Of a stretch of 64,000 nt of DNA, positions 9,184 to 49,335 are shown in pieces. Origin of the DNA: Candidatus Babeliales bacterium (GTDB taxonomy: Bacteria > Babelota > Babeliae > Babelales > JANWKD01); contig CAVRJM010000001.1 of assembly GCA_963722075.1 (NCBI GenBank), positions 768,001 through 832,000 on the forward strand. The letters run 5' to 3'. The number at the start of each line of letters is the position of its first letter. Position 1 is the first letter of the stretch. The notes beneath the pieces were generated by a model, which was not told the DNA's origin, did not search any database, and saw nothing but the letters and a program-made list of their open reading frames with translations. Position numbers and translations under genes: made by a program.

Positions 9184-10950
9184 TCATTCAATAGATTCTA
9201 TTTGTTTTTTTATTTCTTCTAATTCTGAAAAAAGTAACCTTCTATCAATAGAAATAGATTCACTGTTTATATCATCACTATAAACCTGAGGTTCTAATAG
9301 GGTACATAGTTCAATATTTTTGAGAGCATCCTTAATTAAGCCCCATGGCTTTTCTATGTAATTTGATCCACAATAAAACGATTCGTTATCTTTTACAACG
9401 GCAAGGAACTGCTGACAACTATATAGTATCCTTTGCAATAACTCATTAGGAAATACTCGTAATATTGGCATGCCATCATTTTGATTTCCTTCAAAAAATG
9501 CATATTTTTTACCAATAACAATTTGACTCCACTCCATAACCGTTTTTAAATCTGAGAATGACCCATTTTTATCTATAATGACCTTCTTTATTACATTCTG
9601 TGGCAGTTCAAGAAGGTCTTTAAGCTTGGCGGTTAATTGCCATGCGCACTTCCTAGAAAGAGAATCCATTATTATATATTTTATCTTATTATTTTTGTAC
9701 TTCTTTACTTCAACGGCAATCCAATGCCCACCTTCTTCTTGTTCCATTTCGTAATCCCTTCTGCCATCCATAGTCCCTAATATGAAAATATGGCTATAAG
9801 GCGCCGAACCGACAACATATTCTCTAATCTTTTCTTGAATCGTTGCTATTCTTTTAATAGTTTTTTGCAATTTACCAGTAGTAGTTTCTTTATTTAAGTA
9901 TAGATTAATATCGCCAATAATAGTTATGTGCTTTTTTAACTCTCTGCGCAGATTATTCTCAAATATGTCCTCGGAGAGTTTATTGGGTGCTGGTTTTTTT
10001 AATAAGACTTTCAACTCATCATTTTCAAGCCACTCGGCATCATTTTTTTCTTTGCGTACGCTTTTTAATACTTTGGCTCTTAACGTATTTAAAGTAATAG
10101 TATAGCCGGCACTTTGTAATGCGTTCCAAAAAGCATGAAGACCACACTCTGCCCCATCTTGTTGCTGCACTTGCTTATGTTTAATGCAAGAATCAAAAGG
10201 AAGAGATTCTTTATGAATAACCATGGCATTATAATGCTTTATATGTGCATTGATATCTTTCTTTTTGGGTGGATCACACAATTCATGTATATGTTTTTCT
10301 ACTAATTTAAATTCCTTCAATGCTTTAATGCGGGCTTTTTCTAATGCGCAAGATCGTAACAAGAAAGGTAATTCTTTATATAATTGGTAAAATATATTGA
10401 TAACATTTGTTAATGGATTGGGTTTAAGCTGTATTAAGATTTTTTTCGCTTTTTGGTATCGCTCACGCATCTCTTTTTCTTGTTTTGATAATTGTACTAG
10501 GGAAATATAATTATCGGTTTTTAACTTAATAAGATAATGCATCATGGTATGAAATAATTGTCGGTCATCTGCACTTGCCAAAGATGCGATTTTTGCATTT
10601 AACATCCACGATCTTTTATTATCTAAAAAATGAAAAAATGGTAGCTGTTTTTCGTTGGGGTAATAATAATAAGCGAATGATAATTTTTGATTAGAGTGTG
10701 GATCAGGTAATTTTCTATTGACCGCAAGAGTACGGACTAATTTATTAAATTCTGTATTATTTTGCTTACCATAAGATAATTTTTCTTTACCACATAATTT
10801 TTCTGCGATTTTATTATATACCGTTGATAAATCATGATTCAGCAAACGATCTGATTGCCATGGAACCAGAGATTCTTTACGTGCTTGAATATAAGGGCAA
10901 ATGAAAAGCAAAAATAGATATAAATACAGAAATCGGTTTATAGTATACAC
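9184..10950 (-). CDS. Exported protein with a papain-fold, Josephin-like cysteine protease domain
   Basis: Signal peptide; QQQDGAECGLHAFWNALQ ... GHWIAV ... YIIMDS. Confidence 0.6.
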   Translation of the reverse strand: MYTINRFLYLYLFLLFICPYIQARKESLVPWQSDRLLNHDLSTVYNKIAEKLCGKEKLSYGKQNNTEFNKLVRTLAVNRKLPDPHSNQKLSFAYYYYPNEKQLPFFHFLDNKRSWMLNAKIASLASADDRQLFHTMMHYLIKLKTDNYISLVQLSKQEKEMRERYQKAKKILIQLKPNPLTNVINIFYQLYKELPFLLRSCALEKARIKALKEFKLVEKHIHELCDPPKKKDINAHIKHYNAMVIHKESLPFDSCIKHKQVQQQDGAECGLHAFWNALQSAGYTITLNTLRAKVLKSVRKEKNDAEWLENDELKVLLKKPAPNKLSEDIFENNLRRELKKHITIIGDINLYLNKETTTGKLQKTIKRIATIQEKIREYVVGSAPYSHIFILGTMDGRRDYEMEQEEGGHWIAVEVKKYKNNKIKYIIMDSLSRKCAWQLTAKLKDLLELPQNVIKKVIIDKNGSFSDLKTVMEWSQIVIGKKYAFFEGNQNDGMPILRVFPNELLQRILYSCQQFLAVVKDNESFYCGSNYIEKPWGLIKDALKNIELCTLLEPQVYSDDINSESISIDRRLLFSELEEIKKQIESIE

Positions 10951-11040: not shown

Positions 11041-13386
11041 TTATAAAAATGAAATACTGCTCTTCCATAATGGAGTGGATGCTGCTTGATTTGCCATTAA
11101 ATTATTTATTATATGTAATTGAAACCTATTCTCAGGTTTTACTTCAAAAGCAGCTATTTCTGGATGTCCACAAAGCTCTTTATACGTCATATATCCAATA
11201 TTTTCATTTAAAACATTATTATTATTTTCAATAGTTGTTATTTGCTGTAATAATTGTTGCCCTTGTTTATTAAAAGAATAGTTAATATATTTCCGCTTAA
11301 AGAATGTATATATAGAATTTGAAAGATAATACAAAGGACTAATTGCTACCAACAGATACCATGGTTTTTGTTTGAGTAAACCCAATTTATTATTTCTTTG
11401 TTCAGCAAGATTATGTAAGGCCTCATTCAGTCTTCTATGCTCTTTATTATTATTTTCTTCTTTTTGAATATAAGAACCATTTTGTTCTCTCATTTTATAA
11501 TATACCCATCCGTAAAATAGCTGCGGCGTTGTTTTATGGTAGGTGCTTTGGTAATCATGCAAAAGCTGTGATAATGAAGCAGGTGCTATAAATTCATCAT
11601 TATTTTTTTTAACTGGATACGGATCTTTGCTGCTTGAAGCTTCATCATTATTGAGCCGTCTCCCCTTAGAGGATAATCTTTTAGGTGAAGTTTCCGAAAA
11701 TAATATTTCATATTGCTTAATCATCTCAGATGACTCTAAATAAGCTTTCAAATCATTATCACCATCTTCAAGTTCTTTTTTTCCTTCTAATAACTTTAGT
11801 TCAATTATTTTCAGTTTTCGCTTTACTACTTCGAGCTCTTCCTTTATCTCCAGGCGCCTGTTAAAAAGCTTACAATGTTCTCTAAATGGCATTATCGCTC
11901 GTTTTTTTTCTTTTAATTCAATATTATAACCGCGCCCTTCTAATATTCGATCGTCAAACCCAATACAACTTTTTAATTTCTGCTTCAAATCTTTTATTTC
12001 TAGCTTAATAGCACCATAGTTGGCAATTGCTTCGTAATCTATTTTGCTATCTATATTTGTATCTTCTAATAAAAGATTTTTCTGTAAACGCGTATATTCA
12101 TCTTTCAACTTACTTAAACTCATTATTGAATGTTGATCAAACTCCGATTCCTGTTTTTTATTCGGGGTATCTGATAATTTAAATAATCCACTATATATAC
12201 AGTAATAAGGAATATTCCTTTTATATCTTTGGGCTAATTGAGTGAAGAAGGTTTTAAAACTTTCTTCAACTGTACGTTCGGTAGTATTTTGCTTGGCGGC
12301 CGAAAGCTTAAGATTAGTAACCGTTCTTTTTGCCGGCTCTAAACATTTATTTATAAGCCAAATAGTTGGATTAAATATGACAGCTCCGTAATTACTTAAA
12401 AAACCCAGTAACATCGGCTTAGTTTGGGGAGATACTGTTCTTTTTAAATCACCCATGATGCTGGTTAAAGGCTTACCATTTTTTTGGGCTTTTTCGATCT
12501 GACCAATTTTAGCCGGCATAAATTTTCTCGCCACCCATCTCACCCAGGCGTGATCTTCTATAAATTTCAATATGGGTTTTTTAATACCAGGATTTAAAAA
12601 TAAACTGAGAACCCCAGCTAAATCACTTTGATTTGCTGCCTCATCAATACCCTCTGATACCACATTTGCTTTTTCAATCCATGGACTTATTGCTTTCAAT
12701 ATCTGTTTTTCCCCCCTCGAATTCTTTATAGAATTTTCATGACGATAGTATAAAACATTCCAAAGGGTTGCTAAATGCTCGATATAAGGATCATCTTGTG
12801 AGGTCTCAAATTCATAACGTATATCATCCCAATGGCGCGTAGGGTTTGATAATATTACAAAAAAGAAGTCTAATTTTTTTAATAGCTGTAAAACCTCTCT
12901 CGTGTATTTTTTTATAGTATGATTAGCAATTTGATTCACGGTGTATGTTGTATGTAACCTAATCAAATCAAGGGACCCGATCGTATTTAATTGTATAATA
13001 CAATGATCAATCAGCTGTACCATTTTTTCAGCAACTTCACAGTATCCAAATTGATTTAACCATTGATTTGAAAAGAATATCCCCTCCTGTAATGGTTTTT
13101 CTGAATTCTCAATTATTTCTGGATTAAAACCGTGCGATACCACAGCCTTCTTTAAATTTAATAACGCATTTTGTAAAGTGAAACAGTCCTTTTCAACTTG
13201 CACTAAATTATCTTTTTTAACCTGATTATCATGAGTTAAAGAAATAGTAGTTACTCGTTGAAAAATTGCCTCCATGGATTTTACCAAAGGATAAATCAAT
13301 TTATAGCTATCATCAGTATTTTCCATACATACAACAGAGAAAATATGAGCAACTATTACTACCAAATAAAATTTGCGTATATTCAT
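11041..13386 (-). CDS. Large exported coiled-coil hypothetical protein (signal + CME)
   Basis: 781-aa ORF; signal peptide; E/K heptad regions; late hydrophobic segment. Confidence 0.7.
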   Translation of the reverse strand: MNIRKFYLVVIVAHIFSVVCMENTDDSYKLIYPLVKSMEAIFQRVTTISLTHDNQVKKDNLVQVEKDCFTLQNALLNLKKAVVSHGFNPEIIENSEKPLQEGIFFSNQWLNQFGYCEVAEKMVQLIDHCIIQLNTIGSLDLIRLHTTYTVNQIANHTIKKYTREVLQLLKKLDFFFVILSNPTRHWDDIRYEFETSQDDPYIEHLATLWNVLYYRHENSIKNSRGEKQILKAISPWIEKANVVSEGIDEAANQSDLAGVLSLFLNPGIKKPILKFIEDHAWVRWVARKFMPAKIGQIEKAQKNGKPLTSIMGDLKRTVSPQTKPMLLGFLSNYGAVIFNPTIWLINKCLEPAKRTVTNLKLSAAKQNTTERTVEESFKTFFTQLAQRYKRNIPYYCIYSGLFKLSDTPNKKQESEFDQHSIMSLSKLKDEYTRLQKNLLLEDTNIDSKIDYEAIANYGAIKLEIKDLKQKLKSCIGFDDRILEGRGYNIELKEKKRAIMPFREHCKLFNRRLEIKEELEVVKRKLKIIELKLLEGKKELEDGDNDLKAYLESSEMIKQYEILFSETSPKRLSSKGRRLNNDEASSSKDPYPVKKNNDEFIAPASLSQLLHDYQSTYHKTTPQLFYGWVYYKMREQNGSYIQKEENNNKEHRRLNEALHNLAEQRNNKLGLLKQKPWYLLVAISPLYYLSNSIYTFFKRKYINYSFNKQGQQLLQQITTIENNNNVLNENIGYMTYKELCGHPEIAAFEVKPENRFQLHIINNLMANQAASTPLWKSSISFL

Positions 13387-17361: not shown

Positions 17362-17477
17362 ATCTGGCAGTACCTACTTTTCCAGTCCGTCTCCAGACAA
17401 GTATCATCGGCGTTGTAGACTTAACTTCCGTATTCGGGATGGGAACGGGTATTTCCCTACAACTATACCCACCAGAA
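17362..17477 (-). rRNA. rrf: 5S rRNA
   Basis: Reverse complement contains CCCGTTCCCATCCCGAATACGGAAGTTAAG and GCCGATGATACT; ends approximate. Confidence 0.93.
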
Positions 17478-17583
17478 ATTTTTTAGTTCTGATTTGAACA
17501 AACTTTTCAAATTTTTTCTTGTTTCTTGTGAGATATTTGTAACTTAAACTTACTTATGATTACATTACCATAGAAATTTGTAG

Positions 17584-20602
<3,019 letters not shown>

Positions 20603-20754
20603 AAATTTTTATGACTAATCTAATCAATAAGTAACTACAAAATAAATTTGTAGATAATTTAAGTTACAAATATTTCAAAGATCACAAGAAAATTTTTTAA
20701 CATCTTTTAATTTGAGAAAATTTAATTAAATATATTTGAGTTCGTTTTGCAATT

Positions 20755-20830
20755 TGGTGGAGATGAGCGGAATCGAACCGCTGACCTTCCGCGTGCAAAA
20801 CGGACGCTCTACCAGCTGAGCTACATCCCC
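20755..20830 (-). tRNA. tRNA-Ala(TGC)
   Basis: GGGGATGTAGCTCAGCTGGTAGAGCG..TTTGCAC..GGTTCGATTCC..CCACCA; in rRNA spacer. Confidence 0.96.
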
Positions 20831-20901
20831 AAGCATATTAAGCGATACAAGCACTCTTAAACCACTAAAAACAGTTCAATCATTTAAGTGCCCACAGTTT
20901 A

Positions 20902-20978
20902 TGGTGGGCCTAAGTCGACTTGAACGACTGACCTCCCCGTTATCAGCGGGGTGCTCTAACCACCTGAGCTATAGGCCC
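20902..20978 (-). tRNA. tRNA-Ile(GAT)
   Basis: GGGCCTATAGCTCAGGTGGTTAGAGC..CTGATAA..GTTCAAGTC..CCACCA; in rRNA spacer. Confidence 0.96.
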
Positions 20979-21108
20979 GCATTTCAAACTAAAGAGTAAA
21001 CTCATATTTAAATTAAAAATTATACGCTTATGAATCTTATAAAGGAATCTTTCTATCAATAACACCTTAAAACAAGAGCAAGAAACTCTTGCAGTATATT
21101 ACTCCCTC

Positions 21109-22652
<1,544 letters not shown>

Positions 22653-23671: not shown

Positions 23672-25657
23672 TTATTCATGCTCCTTTTCCTTCTCCTTTT
23701 CTTTTACTGGTGGTATTTCCTCTGGGATTTCTGCTATCGCTTGCCTACTTTTTTTTCTCTGTAGGCGCTCGCGCCCGCTTGCACCCAAAGACTTTTGCTC
23801 GCCAAGCGGTATTATACGCTTGCGCTTTGAAGGGCGCTTTGCCTGCAATTCTTCTTGAGGAATAGTAAACCCGATAACTCCATGCTCTTCGTTTCTTTCA
23901 AAAAAATAATTCAGTAATGCCAGCGGAATTTGCTGAAAATATTCATATTCCAGATCTGAACGTAAGATAGGTTTATTTTTTGCATCATCTTTAATAGCAC
24001 ACCATAATAACAATAGTGATGGTAAAGGTAATTGTTTAAATACGTTACGCGAATATAGCTCAAATTCAACAACGGTTAAGTAATACCCCTGTCCTTGCCG
24101 TAACGTTATATAAGAAATATGTTTATTGTCTGGAAGTATATATAATGCCGAAATACTAACATCATTAGTTTGAATTTCCTGCAACAACTTACCGCTTTTT
24201 AGATCCCACACCTGTATAGATCGAGGCTTTCCTATCAATTTACTTTTATATTCTTCTGTAATACCCAAATAAAATGATGAAATTAGATACTTATTATCTT
24301 TACTAAAGAAAATTGTTGGTTTGATTAAATAAGGATCCTCATTTGTATAAAAATGTTCAGCTAGAAATCGGTACATTTTTCTTCCGCTAGTAACATCAAA
24401 TATATAAATACTTTTATTAAAATCGACCACTGCAAGTAATGATCCTTCTGAAGAAAATTGCATTAATTCAATTGCTGCTTCAGTCTCATAACCAAACAGT
24501 TCATCATGGTTTTTAATTGTAATCCTATTATGAATATATCTAGCAACTACATCTTCATCTACGGGGCTAACTGCCCCTTTAAACCCCTTTAAAGGGATTG
24601 TTTTTTCAATTATTAGATTGCCTTTTAAAAGATTTTCTATAGTAATTAAGTGAAATCCATCTTTATCTGAAATATATATTTTTTGCCCATATGCAGTTGC
24701 ATAAATCCCATCCGGATTATTCCATCGCACGTGCTGTGGCGGTTCATCAAAATTATTGGTATTAAAAAGCACGATCTCATTAAATAAAAGTATTAGTAAT
24801 AACCGTTTTGATTCAATAAAAAGCGGTTTTTCCAAGCGATAATCAATAATAGACTTTACGTAAGATAATTGCTGCTGCTCAAATTTAAATAAATCAACAA
24901 CACGTCCATTCATTAATGTTAAAAAAACACTATTATCAATATACGCGCAACTTATTTTAGAAAGGTAATATGAACCTGACGCATTTTCTAACCGAAATGA
25001 CACCATGCGCCCTGGTCGCCGCCTTTGAAGATCATGCGTAATCTTAATAAACTGATCTTCATGATGCCATAATTCTTTAGTAACTAACTTACCTAATATA
25101 CTTTTTATATCTGCTGATTTTATTCTATCAATAAAAGCTAATAATTCTGCCTTTTTACCATATGCAACCATATCCTTAATATAATTAAATAAAAGCGGTG
25201 CAATGCTGGTAATAAGCTCCTTATTGCCAAAAAAGTCTGCAGTATTGGCCATATCAAGAATATCATCAATAGGCGCATTGCCTAAAAGCTGTACCACTGC
25301 ATTTTTTAAACTAGAGCCCTGTTTGATTAGTTTGAATATCACTTTCAAATATAAAAGGGACACTTGCGGTACATCATCAACAAATAAAGGGATAGTAGGA
25401 ATTTCTTCAATGCTATCCTCAATAATATCGCGCAAAACCGGGCTACTGTGCTCAATAAAGTTGCGTGGAACAACAATACTTAATAAAAAAACATCTTGAT
25501 CGCCATCTCTTTTAAACAGTTCTAATATTACTTCCTGTTCATTAGTGGGTAATTCTTGAAACTTTTCTTCTACGGGCGGTTCCATTGCTTGTAATACCGT
25601 AATAAAAAAGCACAATAACCACTTTTTATTTTTCATACTATTAATAAAAAACTCCAT
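23672..25657 (-). CDS. Exported Skp1/BTB-like + WD40 beta-propeller protein, paralog 1
   Basis: Signal + AME; SPVLRDIIED..IPL..ANTADFFG; FSSEGSLLAV and IQVWDLKSG; basic/acidic tail. Confidence 0.75.
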   Translation of the reverse strand: MEFFINSMKNKKWLLCFFITVLQAMEPPVEEKFQELPTNEQEVILELFKRDGDQDVFLLSIVVPRNFIEHSSPVLRDIIEDSIEEIPTIPLFVDDVPQVSLLYLKVIFKLIKQGSSLKNAVVQLLGNAPIDDILDMANTADFFGNKELITSIAPLLFNYIKDMVAYGKKAELLAFIDRIKSADIKSILGKLVTKELWHHEDQFIKITHDLQRRRPGRMVSFRLENASGSYYLSKISCAYIDNSVFLTLMNGRVVDLFKFEQQQLSYVKSIIDYRLEKPLFIESKRLLLILLFNEIVLFNTNNFDEPPQHVRWNNPDGIYATAYGQKIYISDKDGFHLITIENLLKGNLIIEKTIPLKGFKGAVSPVDEDVVARYIHNRITIKNHDELFGYETEAAIELMQFSSEGSLLAVVDFNKSIYIFDVTSGRKMYRFLAEHFYTNEDPYLIKPTIFFSKDNKYLISSFYLGITEEYKSKLIGKPRSIQVWDLKSGKLLQEIQTNDVSISALYILPDNKHISYITLRQGQGYYLTVVEFELYSRNVFKQLPLPSLLLLWCAIKDDAKNKPILRSDLEYEYFQQIPLALLNYFFERNEEHGVIGFTIPQEELQAKRPSKRKRIIPLGEQKSLGASGRERLQRKKSRQAIAEIPEEIPPVKEKEKEKEHE

Positions 25658-25725
25658 ACATTCCCTCCTATTCTCTTTCTTCTCGCTCTTTTTCTTTCTC
25701 TTTTGCTGGTGGCATCTCTTCTTCT
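25580..25725. repeat. Direct repeat copy 1, spanning the junction between WD40 paralogs
   Basis: Highly similar to 27585..27730, e.g. AAAAAGCACAATAACCACTTTTTATTTTT and CTTCTCGCTCTTTTTCTTTCTCTTTTG. Confidence 0.75.
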
Positions 25726-27674
25726 GGAACTTCTTCTTCCTCTTCTTCTCTTTCTCTTTCCTTTACCTTTTCTCTTCTTTTTGGTTTTTTTTCAGGTCTA
25801 CCAGAAGGTATTTCTCGTTCCAGTTGCATAGTCTTCCGTTTCCATTTCTGTATAAGAGCTTTTGCTTCTATCGGATTAGGTGATTTAAATCCTATAACTC
25901 CCCGCTCCTCATTTTTTTTAAAAAAATAATTCAATAATTCAGGGGGGAGACGTTCAAAATCTTCAAGATAATCAGGAAAAATATTCACCGGAAGCTTTTT
26001 TTCATCTGATTTAATGGCAAACCATAATAACATTAACGATATGAATGGTATCTTTTTAAATGTTTTACGTGAATATACCTCAAATGGGACTCCCTTAATA
26101 GCATAATAACCCTGTGGATGCCGTGTTACATATGCCATATAGTTACTATTAGGGGAAATAGATAAGGAGTAAATCCTTTTATCTTCAGTTTTAATTTCTT
26201 GGATAAGTGTCTCATTTTCCAAATCCCATATTTCTATAGAGCTATTTGGTATTTCGTCAAGTATATTTAAATTATTAACATCTAAAGAAAATGCTGAAAT
26301 TAGGTAGTTATTATCAGCGCTAAAACAAATGGATCTTAAATTAGTACTACTTATAAACCAAGGCAATCTTAAATTTAGCATGTCGTTTTTGCCAACAAAT
26401 TGTGCAACGATTTCTTCTCGTTTAATATCAAAAATATAAATATTATTATTTGAATTAACCACTGCTAATTTTGTCCCATCAGGAGAAAATCGTATTATTT
26501 CCACAGATCCTTCAATAGGATAACTAAATTGATGTCTATTATCAGGTGCAAAATTTTCAACAATAATATTTCCTTGTTTATAGTAGGCAATTACATCTTC
26601 ATCCACGGGACTTACATCCACTTTGGGCATTCTTAATGGTATTATTTTTTCTGCCGTATCGTTTCCTTCTATAAGATCTTTCACCCTCATTAAATGCAAG
26701 CCTTGGGAATCTGCTATATATATTTTTTTTCCAAATGCAGTTGAATAAAGAGCAGAAACACCACCCCATATGATCTTTTTTCTTAGTGAAAAATCGGTTC
26801 CATCAAAAACGCATATATATATAATAAAATTACTTCTTATGATGATTGCATTTTCTGATTCAATAAAAAGAACTTGCGAAACTTCCTGAGCAATTTTCAT
26901 AGCAAAATTTTGAACTAATTGCGGTCTGGCTTCTTTAAATTGATAAATCTTCATATCTTTAACTGATTTTATAGCTAAAAATAGCGAATTATTAAGATAT
27001 CCAAAATAAGAACTCATTACGTTAGGAATATTATAAGTTGCTATATTTGATACGCCCTGCAGCGCACTCCGCATAATACCAATAAAATGAGTTTCATGAG
27101 TCCACAATTCCTTAGTAACCAATTTGCTTAATTTTTTTTTTACTATTTCCCCTCTTATATTTCTAATGAGTTTGAAGAGCGTACCCCATTGATTGCGAGC
27201 CACCAAATCTTTAATACTGGCATATAATAATAACGTTATTTTATTAATAAGTGATCTATTGCCTAAATAATCTGCAGTGTTAGCCATATCCACGATAACG
27301 TCAGGAGCTGCTTTACCTAGTTTACTCATTACCGCATCTTCTAAAGAGATTCCTTGATTCATTAACGTAAAAACTTTATCAAGATATTGCATTGAAGCCA
27401 AAGAAACATTATTGGTGGATAATGGAATAGATGTTTCACCCAAATCTATATACCCTTTTAAAATATCTGATGAATGCTCAATAAAATCTAAGGGCACCGC
27501 AACGGTCAATATCAACGATTGATTACCGCTCGAATCATCATATAATTCCATTTTCATCTGGCTTGGTAATACCTTTTTAGGAGGCTCCATTGCCTGTAAT
27601 GTACATATGAAAAAGCACAATAACCACTTTTTATTTTTTATACTATTAATAAGAAGCTCCATATATTCCCTCAT
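25668..27674 (-). CDS. Exported Skp1/BTB-like + WD40 protein, paralog 2
   Basis: Signal + AME; ANTADYLG; FSPDGTKLAV and IEIWDL; KEKEKEREERE tail. Confidence 0.75.
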   Translation of the reverse strand: MREYMELLINSIKNKKWLLCFFICTLQAMEPPKKVLPSQMKMELYDDSSGNQSLILTVAVPLDFIEHSSDILKGYIDLGETSIPLSTNNVSLASMQYLDKVFTLMNQGISLEDAVMSKLGKAAPDVIVDMANTADYLGNRSLINKITLLLYASIKDLVARNQWGTLFKLIRNIRGEIVKKKLSKLVTKELWTHETHFIGIMRSALQGVSNIATYNIPNVMSSYFGYLNNSLFLAIKSVKDMKIYQFKEARPQLVQNFAMKIAQEVSQVLFIESENAIIIRSNFIIYICVFDGTDFSLRKKIIWGGVSALYSTAFGKKIYIADSQGLHLMRVKDLIEGNDTAEKIIPLRMPKVDVSPVDEDVIAYYKQGNIIVENFAPDNRHQFSYPIEGSVEIIRFSPDGTKLAVVNSNNNIYIFDIKREEIVAQFVGKNDMLNLRLPWFISSTNLRSICFSADNNYLISAFSLDVNNLNILDEIPNSSIEIWDLENETLIQEIKTEDKRIYSLSISPNSNYMAYVTRHPQGYYAIKGVPFEVYSRKTFKKIPFISLMLLWFAIKSDEKKLPVNIFPDYLEDFERLPPELLNYFFKKNEERGVIGFKSPNPIEAKALIQKWKRKTMQLEREIPSGRPEKKPKRREKVKEREREEEEEEVPEEEMPPAKEKEKEREERE

Positions 27675-27730
27675 TCCCTTTCTTCTCGCTCTTTTTCTTT
27701 CTCTTTTGTTTTTGGCATCTCTTCTTCTTC
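27585..27730. repeat. Direct repeat copy 2, spanning the junction between WD40 paralogs
   Basis: Highly similar to 25580..25725. Confidence 0.75.
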
Positions 27731-29722
27731 TTCCTCTTCTTCTTCTATTTTCTTTCGTTTTTTTACAGGTTCAGTAATAATTTTTGTTTTTTCTGGTTGC
27801 CATTCTCTTTTTTGACTGATACCAGTTCTTGAAGATTCCCCTTCTAGCGAGGCGAGCATTTTGAATCCTTCAACTCCTCGTTGCTTATTTCTATTATAAA
27901 AATATTTCTGCAATTCATCTGGCAAAAAATAAAAATAATGTAACTGTTCTTCACTCAAATATAGCGGCATATTTCTTGCATCTGTTTTAATGGCAAATAC
28001 CAATAACAATATTGATTTAAGATGCAATTTCCTAAATTTATTACGCCAATTTAGCCATGGTACAGATTGAATATGAAGTTCAAGAAATGAAGTGAGATTT
28101 TCTGCATTAGTTACATATGCGATTTTTTCATCACCAGGGAAAATAGTTAGACCAAAAATATTAGATCTCTTAGTATCAATTTTTTTTACAAAACTACCTT
28201 GTATTAAATCCCATATTTCAATAAAACGGCTTTGATCTTTTGGCGCTTTCTTCTGATTAGGATCTATCAACGCTGAAACAAGATAATTTTCCTTTTTTGT
28301 AAAAGAAACCGCTGCCTGCTTTGGAGCTATTTGAGTAATATTTTCTTCATATTCGCTTTCAAGAGCAAAAGTATCATATATCTTTCCTGTAAAATTATTG
28401 ATAGTAGTCATGTTTTTTCTATTATCAACTGATACCAATAATTCACCCTTAGGAGAAAACTGCAATTCGGTTACTTGGGAAGGCGATTCAATAGTAAACA
28501 TTTCTTCACGATTAATAAGATATATGATATTACTGTCTGTTTTACGAACATTGGCTATGTTATTTTCATACACCGGATTCACTGCAACTTTTGCATTTTT
28601 AGAAATTTCAATTCTACTTTCAATCATTCGACCTTCTAAAAAATCTTTAACTGCAATAAAATGAAGCCCTTTGCCATCCAATATTGCCACCTTTTCACCC
28701 TGCATCGCGGAGAAAACCCCTTCGATTTCAGAATACCATTGTATTTCATGTAGTAATTTCAATTTTTCTTGTGGTGGATAACTTTCTTTTTTTTTATAAG
28801 GAGCTAACATCATTTGTGAACGATCACCTTCAATTGCATACACTCTAATAATGTTTATATGAAAAACCATTATTAGATTTTCTTTCTCAATAAAAGCAAC
28901 ACCAATTTTACTTGATATCTTATCAGATACTGATGAAGGAATTTTCGTCGTAATCAAAGTAGGATTTTTATTTTCATTCACCTTCAATAATTCCAATAAG
29001 TCATCTTGATACACGCCAACCAACAGAGTATCTTTAGCATGTACAAAAGTTATTAATAGATTACTTGATGAAAATTGTGAAGGAATCGTTATTATAAACG
29101 GTTTTTCCCAACTAGAAAGGGGCAGAGCGCCTAAAATAATATTTAAATGAACTTCATCTTTCCAAATTTTTTTAATGACTAATTTAGCCACTTTTTTAGA
29201 AAACGATTCCACTTTTCTAATCATAGCACTTACTATTGGAAAGTAATTATTTTCAGCAGCTTTATGATAAAGAATATCAACAAATAAAGAAATAGCATCA
29301 TTGCTCAATTCTCTATTTTTTATATAATCACCGGCAATTGCCATATTTAAAACCGGGGTGGGATTATTATACGATTGTTCAGTATTTAATATTTCATGAA
29401 AAGCAGTAAAAAAAGGCTTCCCTTGGTCTTGCAAATTAAAAATTTCATTAAGAGACCCTAATGTTTCTGGCGTAATATATTTGGTATATAGGCGAGCAGT
29501 CTCCCCTTCAATTAATGATGGATTTTTAATAAAACCCAGTGGCGCTCTAATTGTTTTTTCAGGCTGTTTATCAGAAGCATTTTGAAATAGCTCCCAAGTC
29601 ATCTGCCTAGAAAATTCACTACCCATTTCATTTGATGAAGGTTTGGAACCTCCTTGATCTGGATGTTCCATTGCTGGTAATGAGTATATCAAAAACAATA
29701 TTATATATGGTATGTATTTCAT
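27671..29722 (-). CDS. Exported Skp1/BTB-like + WD40 protein, paralog 3
   Basis: Signal + AME; AIAGDYI; FSPKGELLV and IEIWDL; PVKKRKK and KEKEKEREERE tail. Confidence 0.72.
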   Translation of the reverse strand: MKYIPYIILFLIYSLPAMEHPDQGGSKPSSNEMGSEFSRQMTWELFQNASDKQPEKTIRAPLGFIKNPSLIEGETARLYTKYITPETLGSLNEIFNLQDQGKPFFTAFHEILNTEQSYNNPTPVLNMAIAGDYIKNRELSNDAISLFVDILYHKAAENNYFPIVSAMIRKVESFSKKVAKLVIKKIWKDEVHLNIILGALPLSSWEKPFIITIPSQFSSSNLLITFVHAKDTLLVGVYQDDLLELLKVNENKNPTLITTKIPSSVSDKISSKIGVAFIEKENLIMVFHINIIRVYAIEGDRSQMMLAPYKKKESYPPQEKLKLLHEIQWYSEIEGVFSAMQGEKVAILDGKGLHFIAVKDFLEGRMIESRIEISKNAKVAVNPVYENNIANVRKTDSNIIYLINREEMFTIESPSQVTELQFSPKGELLVSVDNRKNMTTINNFTGKIYDTFALESEYEENITQIAPKQAAVSFTKKENYLVSALIDPNQKKAPKDQSRFIEIWDLIQGSFVKKIDTKRSNIFGLTIFPGDEKIAYVTNAENLTSFLELHIQSVPWLNWRNKFRKLHLKSILLLVFAIKTDARNMPLYLSEEQLHYFYFLPDELQKYFYNRNKQRGVEGFKMLASLEGESSRTGISQKREWQPEKTKIITEPVKKRKKIEEEEEEEEEMPKTKEKEKEREERE

Positions 29723-29832
29723 TAAGTCCCTTCTGAATTATTCTCGTTTTTCTCCCCTTGAGCGCAAACTTAGTCAATCAGCTTAAAATATGCTATAATG
29801 AACATGATACTATTTATAAGAAAGATTACACA

Positions 29833-30924
29833 ATGCTTGTAGATGATTTAAAAGAAAAATTGAAATCTGCTGAACCCGATTTATCTATTATTCGAGAATA
29901 TTGGGCTAACGCTGGTTATGAACCATTATATGAGCAACTAACTCAAACAAGCAATCAAGAGAATTTTTGGCAACACCCTCAGCAAACAGAAATTTTAAAA
30001 CAATTACAGCAAATCAAAGTCCAACGAGATCAATACAAGTATGTCACCCAAACTCATACTGATATATACCAACTTATTGAGCTTTTTAGCCAAGACGAAC
30101 AAGAACTCCAAAAAATAAGCCCAGAAGTATATGATTTATGCCGTGCCATTAAGAAGTTTAAAATAGATTTATTAATGCAAGACCCTCAAGATAATTCAAA
30201 TTGCTTTTTAACCATAAATTCAGGCGCTGGTGGCACCGAATCACAAGATTGGGCAGAATTCTTATTACGGATGTATGTACGCTTTTGTGAACGTGAACGA
30301 CTCAATGCGCAAGTACTTGATTATCAAACTGGTGAAGGAGCCGGCATTAAATCTGCTACTATTTTTGTAAAAGGACGCAACGCTTACGGGCTTCTTAAAG
30401 GCGAACAAGGGGTTCATCGCTTAGTACGCATATCCCCTTTTGATGCTGCAAAACGGCGCCATACTTCTTTTGCTGCGGTTGCACTGACGCCCGAAGTTCC
30501 AGATGTTTCTATCACTATTGATCCTAATGATTTACGTATTGATACCTACCGGGCCGGCGGAGCAGGCGGACAGCATGTTAATAAAACGGAATCTGCAGTT
30601 CGAATTACTCACCTACCAAGCGGTATTGTAGTGCAATGCCAAAACGAACGCTCGCAACTGCAAAATAAAGAAACTTGCATGAAGATGCTTATGGCAAAAT
30701 TAGTACAAAAACAAAAAGAGGAAGAACTGGCTAAAGCAACTTCTGTTCAAAAGCAAAAAATTGAATGGGGTTCTCAAATTAGATCATATGTGCTACATCC
30801 TTATAAAATGGTAAAGGATCACCGCACTGATGTGGAATCTCCACAACCTGATTTAGTACTCGATGGCGAATTAATGCCTTTTATAGAGGCATACTTAATT
30901 CAACAAGGCGCCAAAGAACAGTAA
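29833..30924 (+). CDS. prfB: Peptide chain release factor 2 (no internal frameshift)
   Basis: GAGGTESQDW, RISPFD (SPF) and GAGGQHVN (GGQ); likely ATG at 29833. Confidence 0.95.
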   Translation: MLVDDLKEKLKSAEPDLSIIREYWANAGYEPLYEQLTQTSNQENFWQHPQQTEILKQLQQIKVQRDQYKYVTQTHTDIYQLIELFSQDEQELQKISPEVYDLCRAIKKFKIDLLMQDPQDNSNCFLTINSGAGGTESQDWAEFLLRMYVRFCERERLNAQVLDYQTGEGAGIKSATIFVKGRNAYGLLKGEQGVHRLVRISPFDAAKRRHTSFAAVALTPEVPDVSITIDPNDLRIDTYRAGGAGGQHVNKTESAVRITHLPSGIVVQCQNERSQLQNKETCMKMLMAKLVQKQKEEELAKATSVQKQKIEWGSQIRSYVLHPYKMVKDHRTDVESPQPDLVLDGELMPFIEAYLIQQGAKEQ

Positions 30925-30925
30925 T

Positions 30926-32974
30926 TCATTCTTTTTCTTCAGTCTCTTTTTCTTTTCTTTTTGATCTCTTTGGTTCAGCTTTTTTTGGTGGCGCTGGCTG
31001 TTTTCTTTTTGAAACTACAGGTGCTCCTACCAGCAAGCTTTTCACATTCCTTACACCACTTTTTTTCTTAAAATATCCTTGTAATTCTTTGGGTAATGCA
31101 AAGAAATAAGGCTCTAGGGTACGATCAAAACGGATTGGTTTATTTTGCGCATCAGTAGCTAAACAAAACCACAGCAACATAATTGAGCGTAATGTCAATT
31201 GACGCAAATTTTGTGCTAACCCAATGACTGAAAATTGCTGAACAATGAGTTGAGACCGCAAACCGTGCCCCGCATAGTGAGGAGGCAGTTGAATAATATA
31301 TGCAATATTTTTATTATCAGAAGAAACGCTTAATCCTTGAATACCATTAATATACGTTTTAGCAGTAGGATTAACATTTATGGTAGTAAGTAAATTTCCC
31401 GATGCTACCTCCCAAATTTTTATTTCTCGACTTTTCGCCACTTTTTTTGAATTAAGTATATCTCCATCAGAAAAACCTGATATAAGCCATTTATTATCAG
31501 AAGAAAAGCACAGTAATGCTTGAATAGAACTAAGAATACCCACACCTAATTCTGCTAATCGCGCACAGTTCTCTATATCCCCATTTAAGGTGCATAATTC
31601 TTTACCCAGTACCATATCCCATACTTTTATAATACCATTATTTGCTACTGATGCCAGTTTGGTCCCATCAGGTGAAAATTGTAAAGCGATAATTTTAGAA
31701 TTATAATTACCAATAGGAGTTATTGTGTGTTTACCAAGTTTAGTTCGTACATTTTTATCTATGTCGTACAACATAATATCACTGTTGTCTATACCATCTG
31801 TATATGCCACTACATTATTGGAAGGTGAAATAACAAAATGTTCTCCGCGCATGCTAAAATTGCGAATTACAAAAAAAGGTTTTTCTGCTTTTATATTAAT
31901 AAATACTAAATCAGGAGGCATGCTAATCAAAAGTAATTTCCCATCAGATGAGCATATAAATTGTTCAACAACCTTTTCTAAATGTAAGCCAGTTTTTAAA
32001 TCGACTCCTTTGGGTTCCGGCAACGTTAAGCCTACCGGAGTAGTTATTAATTCCTGTAAATTATAGAATTTGAAAGTATTATGGTACCAATCTCCACTAA
32101 CTTTATCTATTGCTGCCAATATAGAATTACCTAAAGCAATAAATCCAATATTAGGACTTTTTCTTTTAATAATCTCTATAATCTTATTTTCTTCTAAGGT
32201 AAAGAGTTGTAACGTTTTATCAAATTCAGTTACTATATGCGACAACGTGGCACATCGCCAATTTGTTGAAGCATTAAAAACTACATTTTTCAAATCTAAT
32301 ATTATTGTCGAAGTTTTCTTCACTTTCAATGAAGGATAAATAGCTCTTAAATAGGAAGATTCCAAACATAGGTAATCTACTAACAAATTAACTAGGGGAA
32401 CTACAATTCCGGGCTTATCTTGAACCTGAATGAATAGAGTATTCATTTTTTCCCACTCATTATTCTGCGCCAATTGTATAAGCCGTTCCTTAAAAGCAGT
32501 TATTAAGCTTTCTAGCCATTCCTTATTATCCAGGTAATCAAGTCCAAATAAAACATTAGCAATATGCTCTAATGGTGCTTGGTTAACATATGCCGATAGT
32601 AATAATGTAAAATCCGCTCCCAGTGCCATTTTTTGATATATTTGTTTTATAATACTGATTGTTTCTTTAGGAACATTATCGGTGTAAAGCGTAATAGTAG
32701 AAATACCTTCAGCGCCTTCTTCAAGCCCATAAAATGTTGAAAATCCTTGTAATATCGGAGACGCCTTTATAAAAGACCACGGTACTATCACTTCATCGAC
32801 CAATATTTCATTATCATCTTCACCAACTTCCTTTAATTGAAGTAACGCTTTTTTTGATTCTTCTTCATAAAGTGAAGTCGGTCCCGGTTCTATTGGTAAC
32901 TGTTCAGTTTCTTTTTGCTCCATTCCTCTCAATGTGGAAGTCAGCAGTAATAATATTACGATAAATCGCTTCAT
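30926..32974 (-). CDS. Exported Skp1/BTB-like + WD40 protein, paralog 4
   Basis: Signal + GME; SPILQG..GLDYLDN; FSPDGTKLASVANNGIIKVWD; basic tail. Confidence 0.78.
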   Translation of the reverse strand: MKRFIVILLLLTSTLRGMEQKETEQLPIEPGPTSLYEEESKKALLQLKEVGEDDNEILVDEVIVPWSFIKASPILQGFSTFYGLEEGAEGISTITLYTDNVPKETISIIKQIYQKMALGADFTLLLSAYVNQAPLEHIANVLFGLDYLDNKEWLESLITAFKERLIQLAQNNEWEKMNTLFIQVQDKPGIVVPLVNLLVDYLCLESSYLRAIYPSLKVKKTSTIILDLKNVVFNASTNWRCATLSHIVTEFDKTLQLFTLEENKIIEIIKRKSPNIGFIALGNSILAAIDKVSGDWYHNTFKFYNLQELITTPVGLTLPEPKGVDLKTGLHLEKVVEQFICSSDGKLLLISMPPDLVFINIKAEKPFFVIRNFSMRGEHFVISPSNNVVAYTDGIDNSDIMLYDIDKNVRTKLGKHTITPIGNYNSKIIALQFSPDGTKLASVANNGIIKVWDMVLGKELCTLNGDIENCARLAELGVGILSSIQALLCFSSDNKWLISGFSDGDILNSKKVAKSREIKIWEVASGNLLTTINVNPTAKTYINGIQGLSVSSDNKNIAYIIQLPPHYAGHGLRSQLIVQQFSVIGLAQNLRQLTLRSIMLLWFCLATDAQNKPIRFDRTLEPYFFALPKELQGYFKKKSGVRNVKSLLVGAPVVSKRKQPAPPKKAEPKRSKRKEKETEEKE

Positions 32975-43254: not shown

Positions 43255-44520
43255 TCATACCTTTACCACCAATAATGAATCCCAATTAGTAGTATAAGCG
43301 CGCGAACGGTACACCCCTTCTTTTGTACCACGTTCATAACAACCTTGCGATGCGGGGCGCACCATATGATTGCCCCACGTACTATTTAATTCATCCATTA
43401 CCTGCATCACCCGAGAAAATCGTTTATTCTTTTCATTATCAGCAAACAAATCTTGTTGTACCTCAGCGGTGTCAATTAAACCTGAGAGTATCACTCCTGC
43501 CCGTTTATAATTATAGCCCTGCACATAGATCGCTTTTAAAAGTTGATCCATATAGTGCAATAATAAGGGTGTAGAATCAGTTGCGTAGGGAAGCTTTATT
43601 TCTCGATAAGGAGCGTAATACGTTTGCTCATCAAAGCGACCAGTAGCAATAAAAATAGTTACATAATAAGCACATGATTGCTGTTCACGTAATTTTTGTG
43701 CTGCACGCCCTACAAAAAGCGCTAACAATTGCTGCAGCAATTGTTTACTAGTCACGGGCGTTTTAAAGCTTCTGGTGCAGGCTATTGATTGTTTAGGTGG
43801 CGCATATTCTTGTAAATCAATACAAGGAATACCGCGCAATTCCCATACCGTTTTCAAAAATAAGGTATTATTTATTAATGATTTAATACGTTTATCATCA
43901 GCACGCGTAAGATCCAACGCTGTTTTAAAAGCGTATCGTTCTAAAGTACGCGCATAGCGATATCCAATCCCCCACACATCGTTAATGGGAACTTTAAGCA
44001 AGTCATCTGGATTAGCTAATTGTGTACTATCAAAAATGCCATTGTACTGTTGGTTTTTTTTTGCTTGTTTATTAGCGAGCTTAGCACGCGTTTTAGTAGT
44101 AGCAATACCAATTGAAACGGGAATGCCTACCCATTGGTAAATACGTTCTTTCAACATAACGGCAACTTCGTATGCGTTGGCACACACATCAAATTCTATA
44201 AATGCTTCATCAATGGAATAGATCTCAGTACTATATCCCAACCCTTTTATGACACTCATAATGCGATCAGAAATATCAGCATATAAGGTAAAATTAGCAG
44301 AGCAAGCAACACCATTTACTCGTTTAATGAGCGGTTCATACTGAAAATAGGGTGCTCCCATAGGAATACCAACTGCTTTTGCTTCTTGAGAACGCGCTAC
44401 TACACAGCCATCGTTATTTGAAAGCACCACAACCGGGCGCTTTTTGAGCACGGGATTAAAAAGCCGCTCGCACGATACATAAAAATTATTACAGTCAACA
44501 AGCGCAATCAGTTTATTCAT
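43255..44520 (-). CDS. umuC: Y-family DNA polymerase V catalytic subunit
   Basis: LVDCNNFYVSCE, VVLSNNDGC, YSIDEAF, DVWGIG; C-terminal SRAYTTNW. Confidence 0.92.
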   Translation of the reverse strand: MNKLIALVDCNNFYVSCERLFNPVLKKRPVVVLSNNDGCVVARSQEAKAVGIPMGAPYFQYEPLIKRVNGVACSANFTLYADISDRIMSVIKGLGYSTEIYSIDEAFIEFDVCANAYEVAVMLKERIYQWVGIPVSIGIATTKTRAKLANKQAKKNQQYNGIFDSTQLANPDDLLKVPINDVWGIGYRYARTLERYAFKTALDLTRADDKRIKSLINNTLFLKTVWELRGIPCIDLQEYAPPKQSIACTRSFKTPVTSKQLLQQLLALFVGRAAQKLREQQSCAYYVTIFIATGRFDEQTYYAPYREIKLPYATDSTPLLLHYMDQLLKAIYVQGYNYKRAGVILSGLIDTAEVQQDLFADNEKNKRFSRVMQVMDELNSTWGNHMVRPASQGCYERGTKEGVYRSRAYTTNWDSLLVVKV

Positions 44521-44522
44521 AG

Positions 44523-45062
44523 TTAATTTAATAAGCATCCTTCACTAGGATTTTTATCATAATAAATTGCTTTTTCTGTACTCACCTTTTGCAACTCGTT
44601 CACTTGTTCCACCTTGTTCCTCACCATGGTTAATAAACCCAAACAATATATATGGTTAACCCAATTTTCTTCGGCCATTTTTTTAGCAGAAATATAACCG
44701 GCAAATTCATCACCAATGGTACACATTTTTTTCATAAATGCTTCAATATTATATACGCCTATTTTGCCCTCAGTATTAGGGGTTATTTGTATCCACGGAT
44801 ATTCTTTTTTGCCAGTAGAAATGCTAAGTACTGTTTCAAACTCTATTATTTGCCGATTAACAAATTTTTTTTCTTCTTCATTTAGTTGAGATGACTCAAC
44901 TATCTTTTTATTATTATCAATCACATCAGAAACAATTTGATCTATTTGCGGTACTAATTTCTCTATAAATGGATTAGAGGAAGTTATTCGTTTTTCTTCT
45001 TGCTGCATAGCAACACATGAAATATGAATACATATAAGTGCTATATAAATACGTAGCTTCAT
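44523..45062 (-). CDS. Exported hypothetical protein (signal + AMQ) ending in CaaX-like CLLN
   Basis: Paralog of 45094..45534 (EEKxFxN, STGKK, GxYxI). Confidence 0.7.
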   Translation of the reverse strand: MKLRIYIALICIHISCVAMQQEEKRITSSNPFIEKLVPQIDQIVSDVIDNNKKIVESSQLNEEEKKFVNRQIIEFETVLSISTGKKEYPWIQITPNTEGKIGVYNIEAFMKKMCTIGDEFAGYISAKKMAEENWVNHIYCLGLLTMVRNKVEQVNELQKVSTEKAIYYDKNPSEGCLLN

Positions 45063-45093
45063 CGGGGTCTATTCCTTTTTCTAACCGTTAAAA

Positions 45094-45534
45094 TTACTCT
45101 TCTGACGCTAATTCATCAATTCTCTTTTTTAAGTCAACTAATACATCCATTGCTTCTTTGTGCTTCTTTAAGTAGCACCTATCAATAGTCCCACATTTTA
45201 CAAAAAAAACTAGCTTCGCTTCTATCTCAGTTGCCAGCTTCACAATAGTATCAATATCGTATATTCCAGCATTTCCACGGTTTGATAGCTCATCACCATT
45301 AAGCTTATGTTTTTTGCCCGTCGACCGGTTTAATACAAATTTGAATTGAGCTGCTTTCCAGTTGAAAAAATCTTTTTCCTCTTTAAATAAATTAGGTAAC
45401 TTAGCGATCAATGCAGTGTTACTCGCCATTTTTTGTATAATATCATCTATCGAATGTTCTTTCTTGGCAGTCATCCCCATGCTTTCTACCCCTATTGCAA
45501 CTACCAAAAATAACAACACTCTATAGAATCTCAT
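45094..45534 (-). CDS. Exported hypothetical protein
   Basis: Signal peptide; paralog of 44523..45062. Confidence 0.7.
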   Translation of the reverse strand: MRFYRVLLFLVVAIGVESMGMTAKKEHSIDDIIQKMASNTALIAKLPNLFKEEKDFFNWKAAQFKFVLNRSTGKKHKLNGDELSNRGNAGIYDIDTIVKLATEIEAKLVFFVKCGTIDRCYLKKHKEAMDVLVDLKKRIDELASEE

Positions 45535-45554
45535 GCATTACCCTTTTAAAAATA

Positions 45555-46007
45555 TTAAATCACTTTATGAATAACATAAGAAACTACGCCCCAAATTTCA
45601 ATATCCATATCAGGAGTTACTAATAGTGGCTTATATTTTGTATTTGCAGGCACTAAATAAAGACAATCGCCTTGCTGCTCGATACGTTTAACCGTAAATT
45701 CCCCTTGTATTTGCACCACCACTACAGATCCATTAACCACCGGTAATGCTCGATCTACAATTAACATATCGCCTGATTGTATACCAGCTTCTACCATAGA
45801 ATTGCCTTCTACTCGTACAAAAAAAGTAGCTGCAGGATGCTGTATCAAATAGGTATTAAGATCGAGCTTTTGCTCTACGTAATCATCTGCCGGCGAAGGA
45901 AAGCCAGCGGCAATATAGGTTGATAATAAAGGAATAGGAATTTTTATTGACCGATCATCAACATAATATATTTCTACGTTATTTATTTTTTTTATTTTCT
46001 GTTCCAT
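45555..46007 (-). CDS. umuD: DNA polymerase V subunit UmuD (S24 peptidase)
   Basis: AAGFPSPADDY, RVEGNSM, FTVKR. Confidence 0.92.
   Translation of the reverse strand: MEQKIKKINNVEIYYVDDRSIKIPIPLLSTYIAAGFPSPADDYVEQKLDLNTYLIQHPAATFFVRVEGNSMVEAGIQSGDMLIVDRALPVVNGSVVVVQIQGEFTVKRIEQQGDCLYLVPANTKYKPLLVTPDMDIEIWGVVSYVIHKVI

Positions 46008-46893: not shown

Positions 46894-49335
<2,442 letters not shown>

Follow-up and report, generated by a model that had tools for sequence, protein, structure and literature searches.

A probable exported cysteine protease of a Babeliales bacterium, best read as a circularly permuted form of the Ulp1/CE-clan fold

The open reading frame P0001, which encodes 588 amino acids at positions 9184-10950 on the minus strand of the window (the whole stretch of 64,000 nucleotides that was analysed, from a source genome of 1.47 Mb), probably encodes an exported, permuted cysteine protease of the Ulp1/CE-clan type that would remove ubiquitin, NEDD8 or SUMO from host proteins after Gly-Gly. 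Sequence comparisons and predicted structures both point to this reading, and the arrangement of a Cys module first and a His-Asp module second is best read as a circular permutation of the CE fold.

The frame, as taken from the sequence and the ORF list, opens with a GTG codon, and a Shine-Dalgarno-like GGAGGAGG can be read from the sequence at 10967-10960 (minus), 9 nt upstream of this start. Residues 1-23 (10882..10950, minus) form a predicted Sec signal peptide, called from the tripartite pattern by eye together with hydropathy. No other 12-mer of the protein is as hydrophobic as residues 7-18 (KD 2.65), which stand between R6 and P-Y-I-Q-A23, and hydropathy revealed no later transmembrane-like segment (best 19-mer 0.79). 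The N-terminus is similar in P0003, a full-length homologue of P0001 with 34% identity over 602 columns. An initial annotation of this DNA had described a signal-peptide protein that is probably exported, and the signal-like stretch agrees with that description. Many proteins of this phylum have a Sec signal, which is reported for 44% of the CDS of Chromulinavorax (PMC6561590), and a crude test for a hydrophobic N-terminus picked out 80 of 87 members of the family, and 735 of the 1134 ORFs of the source genome as well.

Four further parts can be delimited downstream of the signal peptide, all on the minus strand. Residues 24-252 (10195..10881) make up an N-terminal region without a known family that is shared with P0003. 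The Cys module, residues 253-301 (10048..10194), is composed of a strand, a loop containing Q263/Q264, the catalytic helix with C269 and then another helix, and has the C-terminal end of SENP8 (155-207) as its counterpart. The His module, residues 302-454 (9589..10047), contains a W-L helix, a sheet, H409, the gatekeeper W410, D429 and a closing helix; its counterpart in the CE fold is the N-terminal two thirds (SENP8 21-143). The C-terminal extension, residues 455-588 (9187..9588), has no Pfam family and is kept in the closest homologues (42% in P0003 and 27% in P0011). A Pfam scan of the 588-residue protein named no family.

The catalytic residues lie exactly where the initial annotation had placed them. 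The Cys codon of Q-x4-C-G-L-H-A-F-W-N-A-L-Q is at 10146-10144 (C269), the His codon of GHWIAV is at 9726-9724 (H409) and the Asp codon of YIIMDS is at 9666-9664 (D429), and both the triad and the Cys-His-Asp order proposed at that time are borne out. The canonical C48 order, His-Asp-Cys, is not found in P0001, and none of 101 family members has Q-x3,6-CG in the 120 residues that follow the Asp. The ordered pattern Q-x4,5-CG-x-[HY]-[AS]-x2-N...H[WYF]...[DN]S occurs in 1 of the 1134 ORFs of the genome, P0001 itself, and in none of 22,680 shuffled ORFs, a control that tests chance only because the pattern was derived from the permuted family. Plain similarity search yielded 30 loci, 28 of which keep C, H and D/N; the remaining two (L022 and L028) are unrelated proteins and not family members. 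Conservation was then read from an alignment, A2, of 62 domains with a Cys-His spacing of up to 175, out of 94 motif rows; members with long inserts and three rows that had been parsed wrongly were excluded, and 19 of 131 profile matches had no regex match. The Cys and His columns of A2 are invariant by construction because members were picked by their Cys and His motifs, and the other positions are also well kept: Q264 in 57 members, G270 in 56 and N276 in 57, with an aromatic residue (W/Y/F) at 410, D/N at 429 and S/T at 430 in all 62. A [WN]-L-x3-[ED]-[ILV] helix is conserved at 307-313, position 307 being W in 27 of the 62 and N in 17, and W occurs at both 307 and 410 in 23.

When the A2 profile was searched against 177,635 PDB sequences it gave 24 matches, the best of which were the CidB DUB 7fiu (E 2e-8), SENP8 (5e-7 and 1e-6) and RickCE (9e-5), followed by Ulp1-like, XopD, pS273R, Ulp1 and NopD. 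The match falls into two blocks whose order is swapped: profile positions 10-62 (the Cys block) align to SENP8 156-208, its C-terminal end, and positions 71-187 (the His block) align to SENP8 26-142, from the W-L-N-D helix on. When each half was searched separately against PDB sequences, the 12 best of 18 rows for the His half were CE enzymes; for the Cys half, the first 4 of 10 rows were SENP8, a Ulp1-like protease and Ulp2, with E-values that are modest (0.01-0.07). The CE clan is described as carrying a semi-conserved Trp where its core begins and a conserved Trp after the catalytic His (PMC4961225), and this marker pair is present in P0001 as W307 and W410; W307 (10030..10032, minus), in the W-L-x3-E helix, falls by alignment offset on the di-Gly clamp Trp of the clan. 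Every core element and marker residue has a one-to-one equivalent in the CE-clan Ub/Ubl proteases (SENP8/NEDP1, Ulp1/SENP1, CidB, RickCE, XopD, NopD and OtDUB). P0001 differs from the canonical clan in having the order Cys-His-Asp rather than His-Asp-Cys and in scoring only 16 bits against C48 (PF02902), below the gathering cut-off of 20.7, and it differs from the bacterial effectors of the clan, which are delivered by type III/IV systems, in its Sec-type N-terminus. Among the individual A2 members, Pfam at E<=1 returned C48 for 16 of 62. Direct comparison of A2 with a four-sequence canonical CE alignment by hhalign gave a probability of 19% only, and a column-rotation test with four canonical CE ORFs raised single-domain scores by only about 1.5-8 bits, across a wide span of cut positions.

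Predicted structures were examined for the whole domain and for its second half. The AlphaFold model of residues 253-454 (pLDDT 82, pTM 0.82) was compared by an order-respecting alignment, in which BpJOS ranked first (Z 6.7, 125 residues, 3.6 A), followed by PaJOS (6.3), the C39-like peptidase 3erv (6.1) and NopD (5.9, 114 residues, 3.3 A), these four being tied within 1 Z; JOSD2, PcJOS and ATXN3L scored 5.0-5.2. All structural Z values are below 8, the guide value of the tool, and no Foldseek E-value reaches 0.001. NopD aligns only to residues 45-196 of the model, past the Cys helix, and CE chains align only from about model residue 38-53 onward, which is what a permutation predicts. Because the whole-domain alignment carries an order penalty, the His half was folded alone (AF2, pLDDT 83), which removes it. 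With this model, 21 of the 50 listed VIA rows were CE-type, and among the matches listed these were led by NopD (Z 6.2, 114 residues, 3.3 A), LupA, XopD, SENP8, OtDUB, SdeA and SENP1; StoD, an unrelated E3 domain, was at rank 2 (Z 5.7). The best eight Foldseek rows were RavZ, SENP8 and OtDUB, and neither a Josephin nor any other Cys-first papain was present among the 50 rows or the Foldseek rows listed. The His-half alignments begin at NopD 831, SENP8 21, SENP1 460 and Ulp1 443, and W307 would fall on NopD W836 and SENP8 W26 if the alignment is ungapped over these six residues. The corresponding residues of SENP1 and Ulp1 are W465 and W448, which we take to have corresponding roles. In NopD, W836 is described as a di-Gly clamp (PMC11130253).

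The natural ends of the family and the positions of its inserts also fit the proposed cut point. Of 97 members whose C-terminus is closed, 35 end within 35 residues past the Asp, at the closing helix. In the 68 of 88 rows that could be parsed, the distance from the Cys to the W-L motif ranges from 38 to 258 residues (sd 66), with P0001 at 38, and that from W-L to the His from 51 to 170 (sd 17). Members with large inserts carry them between the Cys and W-L helices, and the place equivalent to this junction is the variable region 1 of CE enzymes (PMC4961225).

The initial annotation had assigned P0001 to the Josephins, with a possible clipping activity, and had set Ulp/CE proteases aside by their His-before-Cys order. 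That last argument fails for a family that appears to be a circular permutation of the very fold concerned, and we consider a Josephin-family DUB or ubiquitin clippase to be very unlikely. The catalytic order and the His-aromatic motif are indeed shared with Josephins, as is a His at C+3 (38 of 62 members), and BpJOS, PaJOS and PcJOS resemble P0001 in overall topology as well as in a probable role in host ubiquitin signalling (bioRxiv 10.1101/2024.07.24.604956); we found no sequence similarity between these bacterial Josephins and P0001, which has instead the CE marker Trp and a Q-x5-C loop. The strongest point for a Josephin is the rank of BpJOS and PaJOS on the whole-domain model, but this lead is shared with a C39-like peptidase and NopD. 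In an atlas feature search a viral Josephin cluster was listed at 0.81-0.82, although scores below 0.9 are leads only by the tool's own scale. Two distant family members gave weak, partial PF02099 matches over the His region (E 5e-5 and 2e-4 per genome), both under the cut-off; PF02099 was over its cut-off in 0 of 261 phylum genomes, had no match in the source genome, and did not match P0001 at E<=1. Both whole and half profiles retrieve CE enzymes, with no Josephin among the 24, 18 and 10 PDB sequence matches of the whole profile, His half and Cys half. The His-Asp spacing is 19-20 in 54 of the 62 A2 members and 20 in P0001, as compared with 20 in NopD (PMC11130253) and 16 in PcJOS and BpJOS (bioRxiv 10.1101/2024.07.24.604956), and the same domain has been published as a Ulp1 homologue (PMC4378268). 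Nothing points to clipping. Sorting bacterial DUBs by catalytic order can therefore misfile them, P0001 having the order of a Josephin and, by our reading, an Ulp1/CE ancestry.

Two other explanations accept some or all of the CE relationship and differ in function. It is unlikely, in our view, that the permuted CE domain acts as an acetyltransferase (like YopJ, LegCE or lpg1949, or with dual activity like ChlaDUB1) or as a RavZ-like ATG8 deconjugase. Pfam does give a weak match to the YopJ acetyltransferases on the His region of P0001 (E 0.007; 3 of 62 A2 members), RavZ is the top Foldseek match for both the whole-domain and the His-half models, and lpg1949 acetylates despite having the aromatic motif (PMC7391069). 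The best sequence matches, however, are Ub/Ubl proteases, and in VIA-align RavZ and the acetyltransferases stand below NopD, XopD and SENP8; the YopJ family is described as being without the conserved Trp residues (PMC4961225), both of which P0001 keeps, and RavZ as lacking the aromatic motif (PMC7391069). We also think it quite improbable that P0001 is a papain-fold peptidase, secreted or periplasmic, whose substrate is something other than ubiquitin, for example a C39-like enzyme acting on bacterial or host proteins, and whose CE ancestry no longer reflects its function. Such a peptidase would be in keeping with the tie of 3erv in the whole-domain search, with a C39-like peptidase in the atlas feature search (0.81-0.84), with viral CE members that process polyproteins (PMC10318531) and with the great divergence of the family (16-31% identity). 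C39 rows were absent from Pfam and from the whole-profile and half-profile sequence searches, however, the aromatic gatekeeper is kept in every aligned member, and the phylum is host-dependent and described as rich in ubiquitin-system effectors (PMC4378268).

If P0001 is a permuted CE-type protease, a mechanism can be proposed. The protein would be exported by Sec and then released into the protist host by a type II system or by vesicles; matches to secretins (2) and T2SSF (4) occur in the source genome, Babela has no reported secretion system other than type II (PMC4378268), and the described members of the phylum (Babeliales/Dependentiae/Babelota) are intracellular parasites of protists (PMC6561590, PMC4378268). 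C269 would attack the isopeptide bond in the manner of papain, with H409 and D429 as its partners and Q263 or Q264 forming the oxyanion hole. W307 and W410 could clamp the di-Gly as in SENP/NopD, restricting the enzyme to Gly-Gly substrates. An aromatic residue after the His is reported to mark Gly-Gly-directed proteases (PMC7391069), and W410 thereby lends support to the ubiquitin- or Ubl-directed role that had been claimed for P0001. The linker joining the old C-terminus to the old N-terminus would occupy the site of variable region 1 and would therefore likely help to choose the modifier. By analogy with the closest sequence matches, CidB, RickCE and SENP8, the substrate is most likely ubiquitin chains and/or NEDD8, and SUMO is possible; bacterial CE enzymes are said to cut typically ubiquitin, some of them also SUMO or NEDD8, and some acetylate (PMC13720258). 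A likely purpose would be to leave the bacterium or its vacuole without degradation marks. As to the unrooted direction of the permutation, descent of the permuted form from a CE enzyme would be the simpler assumption, because the range seen for the permuted domain is narrow.

A more far-reaching interpretation, which we put forward tentatively and would not expect to hold in full, is that of a phylum-wide class of Ub/Ubl proteases that arose by re-permuting the CE fold into a Josephin-like order and forms a living bridge between the CE and the Cys-first DUB topologies. The length range of the junction loop (38-258 residues) at the variable-region-1 site would then account for a diversification of its members into linkage-specific, cross-Ubl or clipping enzymes; in Josephin clippases, helices that follow the Cys are reported to set the ubiquitin register (bioRxiv 10.1101/2024.07.24.604956).

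The permuted domain itself is already known by prediction. In 2015 a circularly permuted Ulp1-like (C48) peptidase fused to an AAA ATPase was predicted in Babela massiliensis by Pagnier et al. (PMC4378268), who called the permuted form "unique" to that species and proposed deSUMOylation as a prediction. The Ulp1-AAA protein shown there (Additional file 13) has Q..CGYHA.YN followed by W[LV]...E, HW and DS, the same motifs in the same order as in P0001, and these proteins likewise have a predicted signal peptide. A2, which has no row from the genome G007, matches all five complete-domain AAA-fused proteins of G007 (E 1e-18 to 1e-27); the AAA-fused proteins of this genome that carry the published motif strings lie at L139-L142. 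All 5 of these G007 proteins have an AAA domain, as compared with 0 of 71 other members scanned; P0001 is also without one, unlike the fusions of B. massiliensis. The Babela-type fusions further differ in their flanking regions and in a Cys-to-W-L linker of more than 200 residues, as opposed to 38 in P0001. What is new is the AAA-free form of the permuted Ulp1/CE domain, matched across about half of the phylum genomes and without a Pfam family. In the open-access literature searched, we found no report of this form, of its wide spread or of a biochemical test of the permuted domain. The word "Babel" is absent from the available text of a 2026 review of bacterial ubiquitin effectors (PMC13720258), and we found no mention of the permuted domain in the accessible parts of the Josephin preprint (bioRxiv 10.1101/2024.07.24.604956) or of a TM6 genomics paper. 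A domain predicted once, in one species, as an ATPase fusion is thus seen to be mostly stand-alone. Its members provide a large number of expressible candidates for Ub/NEDD8/SUMO proteases with which to study how protist ubiquitin defences are handled and what the permutation does to substrate choice.

Within the phylum Babelota, the single domain of P0001 as query had matches in 28 of 261 genomes, and a 19-member profile had matches in 140 of the 261, including 100 of 189 high-quality genomes and 90 of 145 genera. This profile gave 305 matches, of which about 100 distinct members were inspected, and there are weak ones near E 1e-3 among the remainder. As a single-sequence query, P0001 matched only itself among 859 candidates and gave no useful match in the PDB. 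A representative protein library contained 20 matches to P0001; one of these, the repeat protein P0009, is evidently spurious. A genome scan for relatives returned four records; three belong to Babeliales/Dependentiae/Babelota, and the fourth, from Desulfovibrio, was not a relative on inspection. No relative outside the phylum was confirmed, and viral contigs, plasmids and phages gave nothing with one short pattern or one sequence as query; because such scans are insensitive, a restriction of the family to the phylum is left unsupported. Two uncharacterised proteins from BFVD, A0A3G4ZWX5 of Edafosvirus (E 6e-3, probability 0.92) and A0A1V0SFN0 of Hokovirus (E 0.02), head the viral fold matches over the whole domain and are possible giant-virus relatives.

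The source genome has a second copy of the family, with its domain at C1:960478-961002 in an ORF of 524 aa (G000:C1:959527-961098; L061:550-2121:+) that has the C, H-W and D-S motifs. Elsewhere in the family, tandem protease domains occur in L106 and L141, a MutS_V-like fusion in L068 and an ankyrin repeat fusion in L008, while P0004 has a precomputed Pfam label, PF27636, that a scan with the local library did not return. Canonical C48 (PF02902) gave eight matches in 7 of the 261 phylum genomes. Three of these (L126, L129 and L130) belong to the permuted family, and a fourth (L128) is interrupted by a stop. Another three (L124, L125 and L131) are canonical domains within retroelement-like ORFs and probably represent eukaryotic host contamination. 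The CE domain of L127:1405-3354:- in genome G010 is in the canonical order, and the family profile matches its His block (E 2e-4); it is possibly a relative of the ancestral form of the permuted domain.

Upstream of P0001 and in the same orientation is an ORF of 781 aa (11041..13386, minus), a possible partner of the protease. By BLASTP its residues 197-361 match a region that P0011, P0015 and P0017 carry as an N-terminal fusion to the same protease domain (E 8e-21; E 4e-18 to 3e-13), and a joint role of the two proteins is suggested because three homologues carry this region, of about 160 residues, fused to the protease. The window is rich in short-signal ORFs and in WD40 and ankyrin proteins. 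Four WD40 proteins of 661-683 aa with signal-like N-termini are encoded at 23672-32974 (minus). These had been annotated as Skp1-WD40 proteins; the WD40 part stands, but neither the Skp1 part nor a link of these proteins to the protease was confirmed, since Skp1, BTB or F-box domains were found in the first 300 or so residues of none of the four. A scan for promoters and terminators was at chance level, with 17 found and 24.6 expected. The window also contains a complete rRNA operon with two spacer tRNAs at 17362-22652 (minus), and umuD-like (S24) and umuC-like (IMS) genes at 43255-46007 (minus) with two small signal-like ORFs between them. A leucyl-tRNA-synthetase-like gene at 47058-49328 (minus) is split into at least three ORF pieces, by either frameshifts or assembly errors.
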